64,000 nt of DNA from Callorhinchus milii. Its lineage: Eukaryota. The stretch lies in the NCBI RefSeq assembly GCF_018977255.1, contig NW_024704742.1:67582001-67646000 (forward strand), read 5' to 3'. Below, piece after piece: positions 42,844 through 53,761 of this stretch. Below the pieces are notes generated by a model. That model was not told the DNA's origin and did not search any database. It saw only the letters and a list, made by a program, of their open reading frames with translations. Position 1 is the stretch's first letter. Every line of letters starts with the position of its first letter. The position numbers and the translations under genes were made by a program.

Positions 42844-43107
42844 CTAGCTCTTGGACTTGCAAAATTTGCAGTGAATCCCTCCACTGAGGTCTGTCACAAC
42901 ACCTTTTTCAACCAGACCTGCCAGAAATTTCCTCTCCGTCTCCACGTTGTGCATAGTTTGAGCTTTCATAGCTTCCATCCGGACATTCTCATAGTAGTGC
43001 AAGGGGGTATCTGGTTCACCCAGGTTGTATCCAAATCCCGCCAAACTGACCTCATCACACAAGTGCGTAGCCAGAACAACAGCGCTGACTCCTAAGGTAG
43101 GAATATT
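42844..43107 (-). CDS. st3gal7: Sialyltransferase last coding exon with sialylmotifs S, III and VS ([27 protein letters not shown]...HYYE...HNVETE...[12 protein letters not shown])
   Basis: 264 nt including TAG at 42846-42844. Acceptor tgtttttag. Catalytic His of sialylmotif VS (HxxxxE) is present. Confidence 0.96.
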
Positions 43108-44159
43108 CTAAAAACACAAAGAAGCATTCAGGTTTCCAAATTCAGAGCATTAACATTTTAAAAAAGAGAAGTCTAACAAGTCAATTCCATTTTGAAATTA
43201 TAAAAAAAACTTGCAACACAAATGGGTCATTAAGCTCATCCCTTCCACAAAATATGAACAATGTACCCTGTCATGGTCTCTAATGCACTTAATGTTTTAT
43301 TTAAAATTGGCAATTTTTTTGTGAACTTAAAACTACAAGGCACAACTCAATACCCTCCTTTTCGACCGTGCCTTCAACCGCCCTCCTACCTCTCTGCCCT
43401 CCCTCATCTCAACTCTGCCCCCCCACGCTCGGGTCCTGATCCCCTACTGTTCAGCGCCTTGGGACGTCTTCCCGACGTTAATCTTGGCGTCTTGTTAGCC
43501 CCTCAACTATCTCTTAACTATCCACATCACAGCATTAAAAAAATAAACTGGATATAAGGAAGCAATTCAAATTCTCACCAGTGGGTGGCACCAAATATCC
43601 AATTATAGGATCCAATATTTTGAAGTGATTCCCCAAGTATTGAGGAGCTCAGTTGTACAGCAGTAGACAATTGAATGCAAGTGAGCAAAACAATGATTTT
43701 TTTTTTAAAATGACACTCGAGACATAATGCATTTCTTTGTTTTGACAACAAGTTGCATTTATATAGCACCCTTCACGTGGAGTAGCATCTGAGCGCTTCA
43801 CACACAAATGTTATGCAGTAACCATTTAGAAATGTGTCATAGGCTGGACCAATAAAAAAAGTGTGGAAATATTTGCCAAGAATTGCAGGAAGATTTGCCC
43901 ATTTTGCAGAAAAGTGCGCAGGGGGAGATTAGCAAATTTTACAGAAAATTACCGTGAATTGATTGGTGCTATTGAGGTACATTTTACTGCCAACCTTTTT
44001 TTATTTTATTGATAAACACTAAACATCAGGAAATAACATATTAGATTGTTGCCNAAAAAATATTAATTGCTTGTTTAACAAAAGCTGTGTAGACCATATT
44101 TTTGGGGGGGTGGGGGGGAAACACTAGTGAGGCTACAGGAGCTCTCAAGGCCTGGCACC

Positions 44160-46730
44160 GCACACAGACACAGAGACCCAGAGACAGACAGACAGACACA
44201 CACAGACACCCTCACATAGAGACATTCACAAACACAGAGACACACAACACAGACACTGAAACACAGAGACACATACACTCACACAGACACACACTCACAC
44301 TCAAACACAGAGACACACACCCACACACACTCACACAGACACTCAAACAGACACACTCACACACAGACACTCACTCACACACAGACACTCACTCACACAC
44401 AGACACTCACTCACACTCGCACACAGACAGACACTCACTCACACGCACACAGACAGACACTCACTCACACACACACAGACAGACACTCACACACACAGAC
44501 AGACACTCACTCACACCCACACAGACAGACACTCACTCACACCCACACACAGACAGACAAACAGACTCACTCACTCACACACAGACACTCACTCACACCC
44601 ACACAGACACACACTCACTCACTCACATACAGACAGACACTCACTCACACACAGACAGACACTCACTCACACACAGACAGACACTCACTCACACACAGAC
44701 AGACACTCACTCACACCCACACACAGACACTCACTCACTCCCACACACAGACACTCACTCACTCACACACAGACAGACACTCACTCACACACACAGACAG
44801 ACACTCACTCACACACACAGACAGACACTCACTCACACCCACACACAGACACTCACTCACTCCCACACACAGACACTCACTCACTCACACCCAGACAGAC
44901 ACTCACTCACACCCAGACAGACACTCACTCACACCCACACACAGACAGACACTCACTCACACCCAGACAGACACTCACTCAATCACACCCAGACAGACAC
45001 TCACTCACACCCAGACAGACACTCACTCACTCACTCCCAGACAGACACTCACTCACACCCACACACAGACAGACACTCACTCACACACACTCAGACACTC
45101 ACTCACACACAGACAGACACTCACTCACACCCACACACAGACAGACACTCACTCACACCCACACACAGACAGACACTCACTCACACATAGACAGACACTC
45201 ACTCACTCACTCACACACAGACACTCACTCACACCCACACACAGACAGACACTCACTCACACACAGACACTCACTCACACCCAGACAGACACTCACACCC
45301 AGACAGACACTCACACACAGACACTCACACTCAGACACTCACACACAGACACTCACACTCACACACAGACACTCACACACAGACACTCACACTCACACAC
45401 AGACTCACTCACTCACTCTCACTCACTCACACCCACACAGACAGACAGACACTCACTCACACAGACAGACAGACACTCACTCACTCAGACAGACACTCAC
45501 TCACACACAGACAGACACTCACTCACACACAGACACTCACTCACACACAGACACTCACTCACACACAGACACTCACTCACACACAGACACTCACTCACAC
45601 ACAGACACTCACTCACTCACACTCACACAGACACTCACACTCAGACACAGACACTCACACACAGACACTCAGACACACACTCACTCACACACAGACAGAC
45701 ACTCACTCACACCCACTCAGACAGACATACACGCACTCACACAGACACAGACACTCACACCCATAGACACACAGACACTCACTCACACAGACAGACACAG
45801 ACACTCACTCACACAGACAGACACTCACACCCACAGACAGACAGACACTCACTCACACAGACAGACACACAGACACTCACTCACTCAGACAGACACTCAC
45901 ACCCACAGACAGACAGACACTCACAGACAGACACAGACACTCACCGACAGACACAGACACTCACCGACACAGACAGACACACAGACACTCACACACAGAC
46001 ACAGACACTCACTCACTCAGACAGACACTCACACCCACAGACAGACAGACACTCACTCACACAGACAGACAGACACTCACACCCACCCACACAGACAGAC
46101 ACTCACACAGACAGACACACAGACACTCACTCACACAGACAGACACAGACACTCACTCACACAGACAGACACAGACACTCACTCACACAGACAGACACAC
46201 AGACACTCACACAGACAGACACACAGACACTCACTCACTCAGACAGACACTCACACCCACAGACAGACAGACACTCACTCACACAGACAGACACAGACAC
46301 TCACTCACACAGACAGACACAGACACTCACTCACACAGACAGACACACAGACACTCACTCACACAGACAGACACACAGACACTCACTCACTCAGACAGAC
46401 ACTCACACCCACAGACAGACAGACACTCACTCACACAGACAGACAGACACTCACACCCACAGACAGACAGACACTCACTCACACAGACAGACACTCACAC
46501 CCACAGACAGACAGACACTCACTCACACAGACAGACACTCACACCCACAGACAGACAGACACTCACTCACCCACACAGACAGACACTCACTCACCCACAC
46601 AGACACTCACTCACACAGACAGACACACAGACACTCACTCACTCACACAGACAGACAGACAGACACTCACACCCACAGACACACAGACACTCACTCACTC
46701 ACTCACACAGACAGACAGACAGACACTCAC
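44160..46730. repeat. Compound (CA)n/(CAGA)n/(CACT)n microsatellite, about 2.6 kb
   Basis: Continuous permutations of acac/agac/tcac units. Source of the spurious 362-aa T/H/D/Q-rich ORF. Confidence 0.98.
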
Positions 46731-46739
46731 AGCCCCACT

Positions 46740-47000
46740 CGGGTTCTCGGCTGTTTAACAATCACAGCGGCAGTGGCTCAGAGTGAAGCCCATTGGCCGC
46801 TCGCGCCCCAGCGCCCCGCCCCGCCCAGTGACGTCAGGAGGCAGCCGGGGAGCCGCGGACCAACGAGGTGTACAGCGGCTCTGGCGCTGATGGGCGTTTG
46901 TGGCGGATGGCGGAGGACGTGCGGCTGCACTTTTGTGTTGGCTCTGGTAATCGGCCACACAGCTGTCCACAACTCCAGCAGTGCAGAGGCCCTCACCATA
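46740..47000. promoter_or_regulatory. CpG-rich promoter-like element (CCAAT, tandem GC boxes, full CRE) inside the last intron of the gene
   Basis: ATTGG at 46792-46796, GCCCCGCCCCGCCC at 46813-46826, TGACGTCA at 46829-46836. Densest CpG stretch seen in the window. Confidence 0.65.
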
Positions 47001-47001
47001 C

Positions 47002-47160
47002 CTGGTCCCATCGCCACAGCTTCCATCGAGGTTCAGGTAACTGCAACAGATCTATCGCCGTCTCTCTGATGATCTCTGGGTTCAAGATTCGAAACTGTTC
47101 TGGTTCGATTGGGAGTTTCCTTGGGACTGCTTTCCAGAACCAGAGACTGTCAAAAAATGG
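47002..47160 (-). CDS. st3gal7: Sialyltransferase exon (PFFDSLWFWKAVPRKLPIEPEQFRILNPEIIRETAIDLLQLPEPRWKLWRWDQ)
   Basis: 159 nt, absent from the ORF track and found by manual translation. Acceptor gtgcttttag, donor CAG|gtatgg. FW..V...P...FRILNP.II.ETA matches ST3GAL5-group proteins. Confidence 0.95.
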
Positions 47161-47702
47161 CTAAAAGCACAACAGGTATAAGATTAACAAATTACAAACA
47201 CCTTCATTGATAGGGAGTTTCGATTGTGAAGACGATAAAGATCCAAATTTATACCTCTGATGCAACAAAAGATATAAAAATCAATTGCTTATTGTTCATC
47301 ATAGCAAAAGTTCTGTGCCCTCCAGTCTCCAGTTAATAATGGTCATTTACCCCACAACTCATGGGTCAACAAATTGCATTTATATAGCACCACTCATGTC
47401 AGGGGGACATCCCAAGGTGCTGACCAGTGGAGCGTTTGCACCCAAGTTTGGCGGTTTGATTTGGGAGGGGTGGGAACCAAGGGGGTGGGAAGAAGACCAA
47501 AGGCAGTCAAAGAGGAAGGTCAAGATGGACATTGAAGGAGGCGAGGGAAGGGTTGGGACAAAGGGATTCCAGGATGGAGCAGCATCAGATTATCAGTGGT
47601 AAAGAAGAACTTAAGTTTTAGATCACCTGATCATGTTGAAGGGTCACAAAATGCTTCATTTTATTTGCAGTGACTAGTTTTGTAGAAAAAAAGCAAACAG
47701 CC

Positions 47703-49514: not shown

Positions 49515-51330
49515 CTATCTATCATGCCCTTTGATGATCTTATAGTTTTCTATAAGATCCCCTCTAATCCTTCTATATTCTAGAGAATATAGGCTCAAAT
49601 TGCTCAGCCTATCCTCGTAACTCATCCCCTTCATCCCTGATACTAACCTAGTAAATCTACGCTGCATCCCCTCCAAGGCAAGTACATCCTTCCTTAAATA
49701 AGGAGACCAAAAATGCACACAATATTCCAGGTGTGGTCTCACCAGGGCCCTACACAGTTGCAGCAAAACTTCCCTACTCTTATACTCTAATCCTTTCATA
49801 ATGAATGCTAACATACCGTTCGCCTTCCTAATTGCTGCTGCACCTGCAGACTAACTTTCTGTGATTGGTGTACAAGGACACCCAAGTCCCTCTGGACGCT
49901 AACACATTCCTCGGAGTCCTGTAGCTCAGTGCTTAGAGCACTCGCTTTGTAAGCGAGAGACCTGAGTTCAATTCCAGGCAGAGGGCGAAACCTTGGGCAA
50001 GTTTCCTTACTCCACACAGAGCCTAATAATAATCCCTCCAAAACCAAAAACAATAATAAATTGGTCATTTTCAATCTACGACTGTTTGTGGGACATTGCT
50101 GTGTGCAATTGGCTGCCGCGTTACGTCCACAAATATACAGTCAATTCACTTTACAGTATATTCTGTGAAGCGCTTTGAGACGTTTCGATGACGTGAAAAG
50201 CGCTACATCAAATGCAAGTATTATTATTCCAATCTCTCTCCTAAAAAATAACCTGCTCTACTGTTTTTGCTACCTTGGTGGATGACTTCGCACTTCCCTA
50301 CATTATACTTCATCTGCCACCAGCTGCCCAATCACCTAACCTATCTATGACTCACTGCATTTTTTAAATGTCATCCTCTGTGTTGACACTACCTCCTAGT
50401 ATTGTGTCATCCGCGAATTTAGATATATTAACTTCGATGTCCTCATCTAGATCATTGATGTAGATGGTAAATAGCTGAGGCCCAAGGACTGATCCTTGTG
50501 GCACTCCAGTAGTCACATCCCGCCAATCTGAAAAGGACCCGTTTATCCCTACTCTTTGTTTCCTACCCGCTAACCATTCCCCACGTTAATATGCTCCCCC
50601 CAATTTCATGGGCCCTTATCTTTTGGACTAACCTTTTATGCGGCACCTTACTGAATGCCTTCTGGAAGTCCAAATAGACCACATCCACTGATTCACCCTT
50701 ATCTAGTTTACTCGAAATATCCTCAAAAAACTCTATGAGATTTGTCAAACATGACTTCCCTTTTGTAAAGCCATGTTGACTTGGCCTAATTATATTGTGC
50801 TCCCCTAAACACCGCACTATCACATCCTTAATCAATGATTCTAAATTTTTTCCTATCATTGATGTGAGACTAACTGGCCTATAATTCCCCATCTTTTCCT
50901 TTCCGCCTTTTTTAAATAGTGGTGTGACATTTGCGATCTTCCAATCCATGGGGACTGTTCCAGAATCCAAGGAATTTTGGAAGATCAGACACAAGGACTC
51001 CACTATCTCATAAGCTACCTCTTTTAAAACCCTGGGATGCAAGCCATCCTGACCAGGGGATTTGTCACTTTTTAGTGCTAACAGTTTCCGTAGCACCAAT
51101 TCTCTACCAACGAAAATTTCCCTAAGTTGCTCACTGTCCTTATATCCTTGGTGCATCTCTATTGTTGGCAGACTTGGTGTGTCTTTTAGGGTGAAGACAG
51201 ATGCAAAGTACCCATTTAGGGACTCTGCCATGTCCTTATTACAACTTCTCCCGTCTCTGACTGAAGTGGACCTACATTTATCCTCACTAGCCTATTCCTC
51301 TTAATGTATTTGTAAAACTTTTACAATCAG
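49515..51330 (-). mobile_element. CR1 LINE ORF2 fragment interrupted by a SINE at 49913-50228 (part repeated at 52029-53115)
   Basis: KSPGQDGLHPRVLKE, NYRPVSLTS, QHGFTKGKSCLTNL, YLDFQKAF, LVRPHLEYC motifs. Confidence 0.97.
49913..50228 (+). mobile_element. SINE family A, short subfamily with internal deletion, inserted into CR1
   Basis: Shares the deletion ctccacac..ctaataataatccctccaaaacc with copies at about 9872-10124 and 29180-29410; short attcc repeat at both flanks. Confidence 0.92.
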
Positions 51331-51712
51331 GGATGGGAAGCCAGTGGAGTCGAATGAGAATAGGGTTTGAGAGTCACGGAGCCTGGTGCAGGAGAGGACA
51401 TGAGTTCTGGATGATCTGCAGCCTACAGAGGGAGGAGTTGGGGAGGCCAACAAGCAAGCAGTTTGTAATAGTCAAGCCTCAAAGTAATGAATGCATGTAT
51501 GAGGGTTTCGGCAGCCTGAAGTGTGAGCCAGTGGCGGAGCCGGGAGATGTTGCAGAAGTGGGTCATGATACGGATGTAGTGTAGAAAGGATAGTTATGAG
51601 TCAAACAAGACACCAAGATTCCGGACTGGCTTAGTAAGGTGGAGTGTGCATCCATGTATGGTGATCCTATCAGCGCCTGAGGTGTGGAGGTGCTGCCGGG
51701 AGCCAATCAGCA
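51331..51712 (-). mobile_element. L2 internal fragment (repeated at 53116-53497)
   Basis: Similar to the L2 at 31380-31790. Confidence 0.85.
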
Positions 51713-51789
51713 TGATGGGCTTGGAAGGACAGAGTTTAAAACTCACAACTGTAGAACACAGCATGGTACATATGAATGAATATACTCAC

Positions 51790-51928
51790 CACTTCCTCTT
51801 TTTTGACCATAGCCTTTAACCAACTGAAATCAACACCCTTATACATAACTGCAACAAAGAGCATGTGAGGATCATAGTCATGTAAAGATTTGGGTGTTCC
51901 CTCTGGGTAGCTCATTCGTATAGTTGTT
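51790..51928 (-). other. Partial second copy of exon 53575-53761 ending at the N-gap (probable assembly artefact)
   Basis: Matches 53575-53713 at offset 1785 and runs directly into 30 Ns. Confidence 0.85.
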
Positions 51929-53574
51929 NNNNNNNNNNNNNNNNNNNNNNNNNNNNNNATCACAGATCTAACCAGAATTTATAACGGCTAAATCAGCTAA
52001 TCTGCTTAGCGCAAGGCGGGATGGTGTTAAAAATAACCTGCTCTACTGTTTTTGCTACCTTGGTGGATGACTTCGCACTTCCCTACATTATACTTCATCT
52101 GCCACCAGCTGCCCAATCACCTAACCTATCTATGACTCACTGTATTTTTTAAATGTCATCCTCTGTGTTGACACTACCTCCTAGTATTGTGTCATCCGCG
52201 AATTTAGATATATTAACTTCGATGTCCTCATCTGGATCATTGATGTAGATGGTAAATAGCTGAGGCCCAAGGACTGATCCTTGTGGCACTCCAGTAGTCA
52301 CATCCCGCCAATCTGAAAAGGACCCGTTTATCCCTACTCTTTGTTTCCTACCCGCTAACCATTCCCCACGTTAATATGCTCCCCCCAATTTCATGGGCCC
52401 TTATCTTTTGGACTAACCTTTTATGCGGCACCTTACTGAATGCCTTCTGGAAGTCCAAATAGACCACATCCACTGATTCACCCTTATCTAGTTTACTCGA
52501 AATATCCTCAAAAAACTCTATGAGATTTGTCAAACATGACTTCCCTTTTGTAAAGCCATGTTGACTTGGCCTAATTATATTGTGCTCCCCTAAACACCGC
52601 ACTATCACATCCTTAATCAATGATTCTAAATTTTTTCCTATCATTGATGTGAGACTAACTGGCCTATAATTCCCCATCTTTTCCTTTCCGCCTTTTTTAA
52701 ATAGTGGTGTGACATTTGCGATCTTCCAATCCATGGGGACTGTTCCAGAATCCAAGGAATTTTGGAAGATCAGACACAAGGACTCCACTATCTCATAAGC
52801 TACCTCTTTTAAAACCCTGGGATGCAAGCCATCCTGACCAGGGGATTTGTCACTTTTTAGTGCTAACAGTTTCCGTAGCACCAATTCTCTACCAACGAAA
52901 ATTTCCCTAAGTTGCTCACTGTCCTTATATCCTTGGTGCATCTCTATTGTTGGCAGACTTGGTGTGTCTTTTAGGGTGAAGACAGATGCAAAGTACCCAT
53001 TTAGGGACTCTGCCATGTCCTTATTACAACTTCTCCCGTCTCTGACTGAAGTGGACCTACATTTATCCTCACTAGCCTATTCCTCTTAATGTATTTGTAA
53101 AACTTTTACAATCAGGGATGGGAAGCCAGTGGAGTCGAATGAGAATAGGGTTTGAGAGTCACGGAGCCTGGTGCAGGAGAGGACATGAGTTCTGGATGAT
53201 CTGCAGCCTACAGAGGGAGGAGTTGGGGAGGCCAACAAGCAAGCAGTTTGTAATAGTCAAGCCTCAAAGTAATGAATGCATGTATGAGGGTTTCGGCAGC
53301 CTGAAGTGTGAGCCAGTGGCGGAGCCGGGAGATGTTGCAGAAGTGGGTCATGATACGGATGTAGTGTAGAAAGGATAGTTATGAGTCAAACAAGACACCA
53401 AGATTCCGGACTGGCTTAGTAAGGTGGAGTGTGCATCCATGTATGGTGATCCTATCAGCGCCTGAGGTGTGGAGGTGCTGCCGGGAGCCAATCAGCATGA
53501 TGGGCTTGGAAGGACAGAGTTTAAAACTCACAACTGTAGAACACAGCATGGTACATATGAATGAATATACTCAC

Positions 53575-53761
53575 CACTTCCTCTTTTTTGACCATAGCCT
53601 TTAACCAACTGAAATCAACACCCTTATACATAACTGCAACAAAGAGCATGTGAGGATCATAGTCATGTAAAGATTTGGGTGTTCCCTCTGGGTAGCTCAT
53701 TCGTATAGTTGTTTTGTTGCCAACATCCTGAGTAAATCCATGAATTGGTGCACTGTTCAAC
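53575..53761 (-). CDS. st3gal7: Sialyltransferase exon with second half of sialylmotif L ([28 protein letters not shown]...[11 protein letters not shown])
   Basis: 187 nt, acceptor ttcacttag, donor GTG|gtgagt. Lies in ORF 53521-53760. Phase 2 in, phase 0 out. Confidence 0.96.

Follow-up and report, generated by a model that had tools for sequence, protein, structure and literature searches.

Alternative or antisense promoters derived from transposons occur inside host genes. In sequence, a CpG island is recognized by a GC content above 50%, an observed-to-expected CpG ratio (O/E) above 0.6, and a length of at least 200 bp; the CCAAT box, the GC box, and the CRE are assigned to NF-Y, Sp/KLF, and CREB, respectively. 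Where GC-biased gene conversion acts, A/T-to-G/C changes are expected to be fixed in local excess. The hAT DNA transposons have ends of 10–25 bp and 8-bp duplications (PMC3942097), and a CGGBP-type domain has been tied mainly to the hAT-19 elements (PMC8097297). The main text of the latter paper makes no mention of sharks or Callorhinchus; its supplements list the species with hAT-19 and may hold a name for the family described here. In dogs and passerines, which are without PRDM9, recombination hotspots lie at CpG-island promoters; without PRDM9, hotspots are found at hypomethylated CpG islands, where they cause GC bias, and in mice nearly all newly hypomethylated regions become PRDM9-independent hotspots (PMC13186367). 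Elephant shark PRDM9 is reported to be KRAB-SET only, without SSXRD and without fast zinc-finger evolution, and was not detected as expressed; that recombination in the elephant shark is not under its direction is the paper's own inference (PMC5519329).

The patch studied here lies in the window, the whole 64-kb stretch of Callorhinchus milii DNA that was analysed, and had been proposed to be a housekeeping-style promoter of the host. It is almost certainly the left arm of a hAT DNA transposon, a non-autonomous one that extends from 46946 to 43844 in the last intron of ST3GAL5, and may be regarded as a fossil element that shows a hint, open to testing, of having awakened.

The host gene and the inserted element

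The host gene, on the minus strand, is ST3GAL5: its six coding exons translate exactly to P0001, and the 344-bp exon is 100% identical to the lactosylceramide alpha-2,3-sialyltransferase of C. milii. The exact translation places the patch within the last intron, at a distance of 16 kb from the ATG, as had been proposed. The joints on both sides of the penultimate coding exon are bridged by RNA-like contigs (runs X1, X6, and X3, from two studies), the lower joint running from 47002 to the normal acceptor at 43107; the RNA status of the runs was guessed. The retention of CpGs had also been thought to reach into this exon. It contains 6 CpGs, whereas the remaining exons predict about 3 (p=0.10), and has a GC3 of 55% versus 45% (p=0.18), or versus 42% in the upstream exons (p=0.09), values that do not go significantly beyond chance; nor is the GC shift described below significant there.

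Some other features of the locus were observed. Run X1 includes a low-depth contig that passes from the exon into the upstream intron (window 47132–47425) and represents unspliced RNA or DNA. A 1685-bp block that includes most of the 187-bp exon occurs twice, at 50244–51928 and 52029–53713, with two mismatches and on either side of a 30-N gap; the duplicate is very likely an assembly artefact. The "isoform X2" P0012 (182 residues) starts from the earliest Met in the copy cut by the gap, from which it may have arisen. A perfect family end motif is present at G000:C1:67653434, 7.4 kb past the end of the window and upstream of the ST3GAL5 coding exons. An Rfam scan of 38000–64000 gave a single match, to tRNA (40 bits), at 49919–49981 inside an abundant interspersed repeat, which is probably the head of a SINE, and none at the promoter-like patch.

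A search of the genome with 46731–47200 returned the site itself and seven other places at 69–83% identity, all within the promoter-like part. At all seven this part is followed by a TG/TC microsatellite and, at most of them, then by a tail that matches window 44165–43844. When a sibling head was used as the query, the best 40 of 429 candidates were scored, and with the tail the best 40 of 1016. A 14-mer of the head has 172 exact matches in the genome versus none for a control, and the 16-base end motif has 1594 at no more than one mismatch versus 4 for its control. Because an element has two ends and copies decay, this last count suggests a family of about a thousand copies.

The set of elements comprised 68 loci, 11 of which repeat others; both ends were found in 27 of the remaining 57, and the window copy brings the complete elements to 28. 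Their flanks are 76% identical in the 8-bp register versus 9–28% at lengths of 2–7 and 9–12. The two copies of the target duplication agree at six or more of the eight positions in 22 of the 28 elements, the window copy (6/8) included, and at five or fewer in 6; the mean agreement is 6.1/8 within elements versus 4.0 between them, a value reached in none of 20,000 permutations. The target is biased, with AT in the center, a pyrimidine at position 2, and a purine at position 7. The terminal inverted repeats are about 22 bp long in family copies, and those of the window copy match the end motif at 13/17 and 14/17 positions. The window copy is 3103 bp long, lies 55 bp into the last intron, and has the same direction as ST3GAL5; its head, microsatellite, and tail stand in the family order with a matching target duplication. 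The other 27 complete copies measure 0.5–1.6 kb. The interior can grow to 2.5–3.5 kb of TG/TC microsatellite, and kilobase-long tandem arrays whose unit differs by copy were seen in L038, L041, L066, L150, and the window copy; in L150, a copy of 3.9 kb, the interior is microsatellite only. The features of the locus are collected in Table 1.

Table 1. Positions of ST3GAL5 exons, transposon parts, and promoter-like motifs in the window
Feature	Position	Strand	Remark
ST3GAL5 coding exons	63022-62985, 60147-60027, 55199-54856, 53761-53575, 47160-47002, 43107-42844	-	
ST3GAL5 penultimate coding exon	47002..47160	-	element begins 55 bp past its donor
ST3GAL5 last exon, coding part	42844..43107	-	
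Left 8-bp target-site duplication	46947..46954	-	6/8 matches to right copy
Left terminal inverted repeat	46925..46946	-	decayed; 13/17 matches to family end motif
Head (left arm)	46758..46946	-	homologous to 5' leader of transposase-bearing relatives; privately GC-shifted
CRE TGACGTCA	46829..46836	.	family-consensus feature; intact in 29/122 other heads
Overlapping GC boxes	46813..46826	-	one in family consensus; run lengthened in window copy
CCAAT box	46792..46796	-	one A-to-C change from family state; in one other family copy
Short segment	46736..46759	+	putative inverted copy of head's middle
Internal TG/TC-rich microsatellite	44161..46731	-	grown to 2.57 kb in window copy
Tail (right arm)	43844..44165	-	ends in right terminal inverted repeat 43844-43865; ordinary substitution pattern
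Right 8-bp target-site duplication	43836..43843	-	

Of three longer stretches examined, L151 and L153 have the family end motif on both sides of a broken transposase, and L152 retains the right end. At least 40 places match the interior of L151 at 80–100%. P0023 is a relative of a piece of L151 at 77% identity, and P0026, named "CGG triplet repeat-binding," is similar to P0023 (E 5e-21) and has as its top Atlas match a CGGBP1-like cluster (score 0.96), with zf-BED/hAT clusters next. A match of the transposase pieces to DUF659 (E 3e-5) is below the curated cut-off. Pfam gave nothing significant in five L151 pieces, including the 51-residue C-terminal piece, in which PF05699 was sought, and none of the 20 PF05699 places examined (of 70) had a family end within 1.2 kb downstream; the PF05699 remnant L149, by a family end on C1, was discarded as a link to the family, the remnant lying outside the element. 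The short C. milii database "proteins" P0022–P0027 look like pieces of the family's dead transposase, not host genes. Short inverted ends, an 8-bp duplication, and a transposase between the same ends together indicate membership of the hAT superfamily, and the family, by the features described for such elements, appears CGGBP/hAT-19-like. The element is thus apparently a further member of an already known kind of transposon; a search of the literature by title and start of abstract found nothing on this hAT family.

Origin of the promoter-like motifs

The motifs on which the original prediction was founded are all present. The CCAAT box reads ATTGG, the GC boxes include CCCCGCCCC at 46814 and CCGCCC at 46816 and 46821, and the CRE is the sole perfect one in the window. 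The patch is likewise the densest CpG stretch of the window, with 21 CpGs per 200 bp at 46731–46930 versus 16 for the next best. For 46731–46950 (220 bp) the GC content is 66% and the O/E is 0.87 versus 0.37 for the window, and over 500 bp the values are 56% and 0.75, so that both lengths have the sequence properties of a CpG island.

The CRE, the GC box, and most of the CpGs (about 20) come with the transposon family, to judge from the majority sequence of 32 sibling heads, which includes a CRE, a GC box, and 20 CpGs in 211 bp. From 133 control heads examined, 11 with fewer than 140 aligned bases were dropped; of the 122 kept, 32 had been chosen because they resembled a sibling head or the tail, 89 because they held an exact short word, and 1 for its CCAAT variant, and a few are possibly duplicates of one another. 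Among these 122, the CRE is intact in 29, the GC-box hexamer in 35, and both in 12, whereas an internal CCAAT is present in 1 and all three motifs in none. Throughout the genome the family-state word has 103 matches. The CCAAT variant has 5, two of them in family copies: besides the window copy, three of its four other matches are due to chance, and the fourth (L154) is an ordinary copy. The short segment at 46736–46759 is nearer to the family consensus than to the head of the window copy; it keeps family-state letters that the head has lost and is absent from 60 copies examined.

The reading of the patch as a housekeeping promoter of the host is unsupported because the segment is a multi-copy repeat (the seven other places, with 172 and 1594 matches to its words) rather than unique sequence, a result that the original prediction had itself listed as refuting it, and because the CRE, the GC box, and most CpGs are family-borne. 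The splice donors proposed with it have other origins. On the minus strand, the donor at 46731/46730 is supplied by the opening unit of the microsatellite, a tract that contains 119 GTGAGT words. On the plus strand, the donor at 46946/46947 is the exact boundary between the transposon end and the target duplication, which supplies GTAATC, and the donor at 47037 consists of exon codons read in antisense. Across the family, splice-donor look-alikes arise at the ends of elements where the CAG of the end motif adjoins a preferred target (often GTNAT), 46946/46947 being one example. An open reading frame of 110 codons, stop to stop (46832–47161, plus strand), was rejected as a gene; it passes over the end of the transposon and continues, in antisense, into the exon.

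A profile of the head matches the leader of L151 (positions 1–191, E 3e-25) and that of L153 (E 3e-12). The CRE/GC-box half alone scores above 300 of 300 shuffles in both, but not above all of them in L152, whose left end is missing. The leader in L151 and L153 ends at a donor-like site before the coding region, at the position of an Inr-like word from which a minus-strand transcript had been proposed to start. Through this homology the head can be recognized as a remnant of the transposase 5' leader, and the ancestral leader would have acted as a promoter. The CRE is not established as a part of that promoter because it is absent from the leader of both transposase-bearing copies, L151 and L153.

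Among 14 rows of sequencing runs, none is recorded as RNA and 8 are RNA by guess, containing 0.13–0.37 of the query words; contigs could be aligned to 46706–47425 from three of these 8 RNA-like runs and from one of the 4 others (X9, DNA). The three RNA-like contig sets have no cover at 46706–46993, which is covered by run X9, and no loose ends at 46731, 46947, or 47037. Because these sets are from undefined tissue and rare forms are dropped by contigs, the gap carries no weight as evidence, and contigs cannot show starts. Transcription from the head is neither shown nor excluded. A literature search for an alternative or antisense promoter in an ST3GAL5 intron found nothing.

A GC shift private to the window copy

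In the head of the window copy, A/T has been replaced by G/C at 21 of 72 non-CpG sites versus 7.7% in the 122 controls (s.d. 3.7, highest 22.7%; binomial p 7e-8), and G/C by A/T at 5 of 83 versus 11.5%. Its GC content is 0.68 versus 0.54 ± 0.03 in the controls (highest 0.62), and its CpG density is 10.1 per 100 bp versus 5.2, a density found in 1 of the 122. Transition has removed 2 of 16 ancestral CpGs versus 43% in the controls (p=0.019; 3 of 122 as low), and 5 of the 16 have been lost from all causes. The changes are scattered along the whole head, which is the most GC-shifted of the 123, a rank on which the choice of this copy for its CpG richness bears.

The tail of the same insertion is ordinary (A/T to G/C at 13 of 180 sites, G/C to A/T at 24 of 126; identity 0.86 versus 0.88 ± 0.02). 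With an ordinary tail 2.6 kb away, the shift is not regional; the A/T-to-G/C excess is local, as at a recombination hotspot. After insertion, such changes were fixed in the head, and not in the tail, at about four times the family rate, and they account for the CCAAT box, the longer run of GC boxes, and additional CpGs. Their direction is fixed by the transposase-bearing relatives, which carry A/T at 10 of 11 comparable sites in L151 and 8 of 9 in L153. No more than 5 of the 33 changes are common to any one control copy, and the head is therefore not a member of a subfamily; its total divergence is not unique. Even with three mismatches allowed, a 23-mer taken from the shifted part has no second match in the genome. 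One change, at 46937, may still be polymorphic because DNA run X9 has the family-state letter there (one contig).

Weaker private shifts are present in L171 (G000:C18:3258012-3258292; A/T to G/C 17/75, G/C to A/T 5/81) and L185 (G000:C3:36487329-36487609; 14/81 and 6/88), which are candidates for other awakened copies. Because the family has this tail of GC-shifted copies, the window copy is the extreme of a skewed distribution. An apparent shift in L180 was a product of poor alignment. L167 (G000:C12:7935633-7935913) and L031 are near the family majority and keep 16/19 and 12/19 ancestral CpGs, respectively; they are candidate younger or unmethylated copies.

Interpretation and comparison with known systems

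We propose a history that leads from a hAT left arm, through GC-biased gene conversion at a hotspot, to an unmethylated germ-line island, a chain that as a whole seems to us about evenly balanced between right and wrong. The 5' leader of a CGGBP1-like transposase gene gave rise to the arm that brought a CRE, a GC box, and CpG richness into the ST3GAL5 intron. The GC excess would then result from GC-biased gene conversion at a narrow recombination hotspot and, more tentatively, the hotspot would have formed there, in a species with a seemingly partial PRDM9, through the escape of the CRE/GC-box head from germ-line methylation. The patch would be, or have been, a small open island with transcription that is at most weak or unstable and with no host function, and biased conversion could have completed the set of motifs with selection not needed. 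The private A/T-to-G/C shift and the few CpG transitions lend some indirect support to germ-line hypomethylation; the low CpG decay does not stand apart from the GC bias because gene conversion alone would also slow it. It counts against the open-island chain that the PRDM9-independent hotspots of the mouse are depleted in transposons (PMC13186367) and that in elephant shark liver transposons are mostly methylated, whereas expressed starts are unmethylated (PMC5437953).

The hypermethylation of transposons in liver (PMC5437953) would instead fit a silent fossil, a possibility that we consider rather improbable but the most serious of the alternatives. The head would be methylated and its motifs inert, and the shift would be due to a past hotspot set by a cause other than open chromatin, sequence-directed or microsatellite-driven, or would be the tail of regional variation. 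A microsatellite of 2.57 kb does adjoin the head, but it adjoins the tail likewise, and there without a shift. Regional variation is opposed by the ordinary tail 2.6 kb off. In favor of a silent fossil, the shift has no significant spread into the exon, and L171 and L185 have GC shifts too, but a p value of 7e-8 is too small for plain sampling among about a thousand copies. The loss of 5 of 16 ancestral CpGs agrees with a methylated head, whereas the seemingly partial PRDM9 of the elephant shark (PMC5519329) speaks against this account.

It is unlikely that the head is an exapted promoter for a stable RNA, probably in the germ line, whether a minus-strand form made of the last exon and 3' UTR or an antisense across ST3GAL5. 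It is the sole head of 123 with a CRE, a GC box, and a CCAAT box together, but such gains of motifs are expected from biased conversion without selection. The ancestral transposase leader points inward, in the direction of the minus-strand option, and the GC shift suggests long-lived open chromatin; however, the first exon of such a transcript has no ATG, after splicing it could encode no more than a C-terminal peptide of 44 residues, and the proposed donors are by-products of the repeat. Furthermore, the ST3GAL5 cluster comprises 11 proteins, not one of which starts at the last exon, and RNA-like contigs of two studies are unbroken across the normal last joint. Doubtful, too, is an extension of the open-island chain in which about a thousand CRE/GC-box cassettes are scattered through the genome and a few of them (the window copy, and perhaps L171 and L185) have escaped methylation to become germ-line promoters and default hotspots, built up by GC-biased conversion, with the window copy driving a nested or antisense ST3GAL5 RNA. 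We consider it very improbable that the head represents a GC-rich subfamily or that the assembly was mis-joined at the microsatellite: the head is just 78–79% identical to the consensus at non-CpG sites and an assembly artefact lies 3–5 kb away, but the shifted 23-mer is unique, at most 5 of 33 changes are shared, the parts stand in family order with a matching target duplication, and exon, intron, and head are joined, as far as 46736, in a single DNA contig of run X9.

The locus is a warning that clusters of promoter motifs in the elephant shark genome can be repeat-borne. Because the ancestral sequence is known from hundreds of siblings, every copy records its local germ-line history. If the shifted copies prove to be unmethylated, they would allow awakened transposons to be found from sequence alone, would be direct evidence that chimaera recombination takes place at open islands and not at PRDM9 sites, and would exemplify how gene conversion can build promoter motifs with no selection. 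If the cassettes have indeed awakened, the family would be a natural replicated experiment on the birth of CpG islands and hotspots in cartilaginous fish.

The patch resembles the PRDM9-independent hotspots of dogs, passerines, and PRDM9-null mice in being narrow and CpG-rich, in its A/T-to-G/C excess, and in the partial PRDM9 of its host (PMC13186367, PMC5519329). It differs in that those of the mouse are depleted in transposons, whereas the patch, known from sequence alone, is the arm of one (PMC13186367). As in transposon-derived intragenic promoters, motifs were brought into an intron by a mobile element and bettered by point changes; such promoters have transcript starts, whereas the elephant shark head is known from its motifs alone. 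With the hAT-19 elements that have a CGGBP-type N terminus (hAT-19_Crp and hAT-13_LCh), the family shares, in the features described for them, the 8-bp duplication, short inverted ends, a CGG/CGC-rich subterminal sequence, and remnants of a transposase with a CGGBP1-like zinc finger and a Hermes-type DNA-binding region, but the window copy is non-autonomous, a microsatellite replacing the gene (PMC8097297). Like the BuT2 MITEs, which are hAT deletion derivatives, the elements are non-coding and numerous, with conserved ends and a duplication of their own for each copy, and the 27 complete elephant shark copies of 0.5–1.6 kb are also short (PMC3942097). MITEs are short with an AT-rich interior; at 3103 bp, with an interior of about 50% GC, the window copy is, by its sequence, MITE-like only. 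The elephant shark elements differ from BuT2 in an interior of TG/TC microsatellite, not AT-rich DNA, and in a head that carries a CRE and a GC box (PMC3942097).
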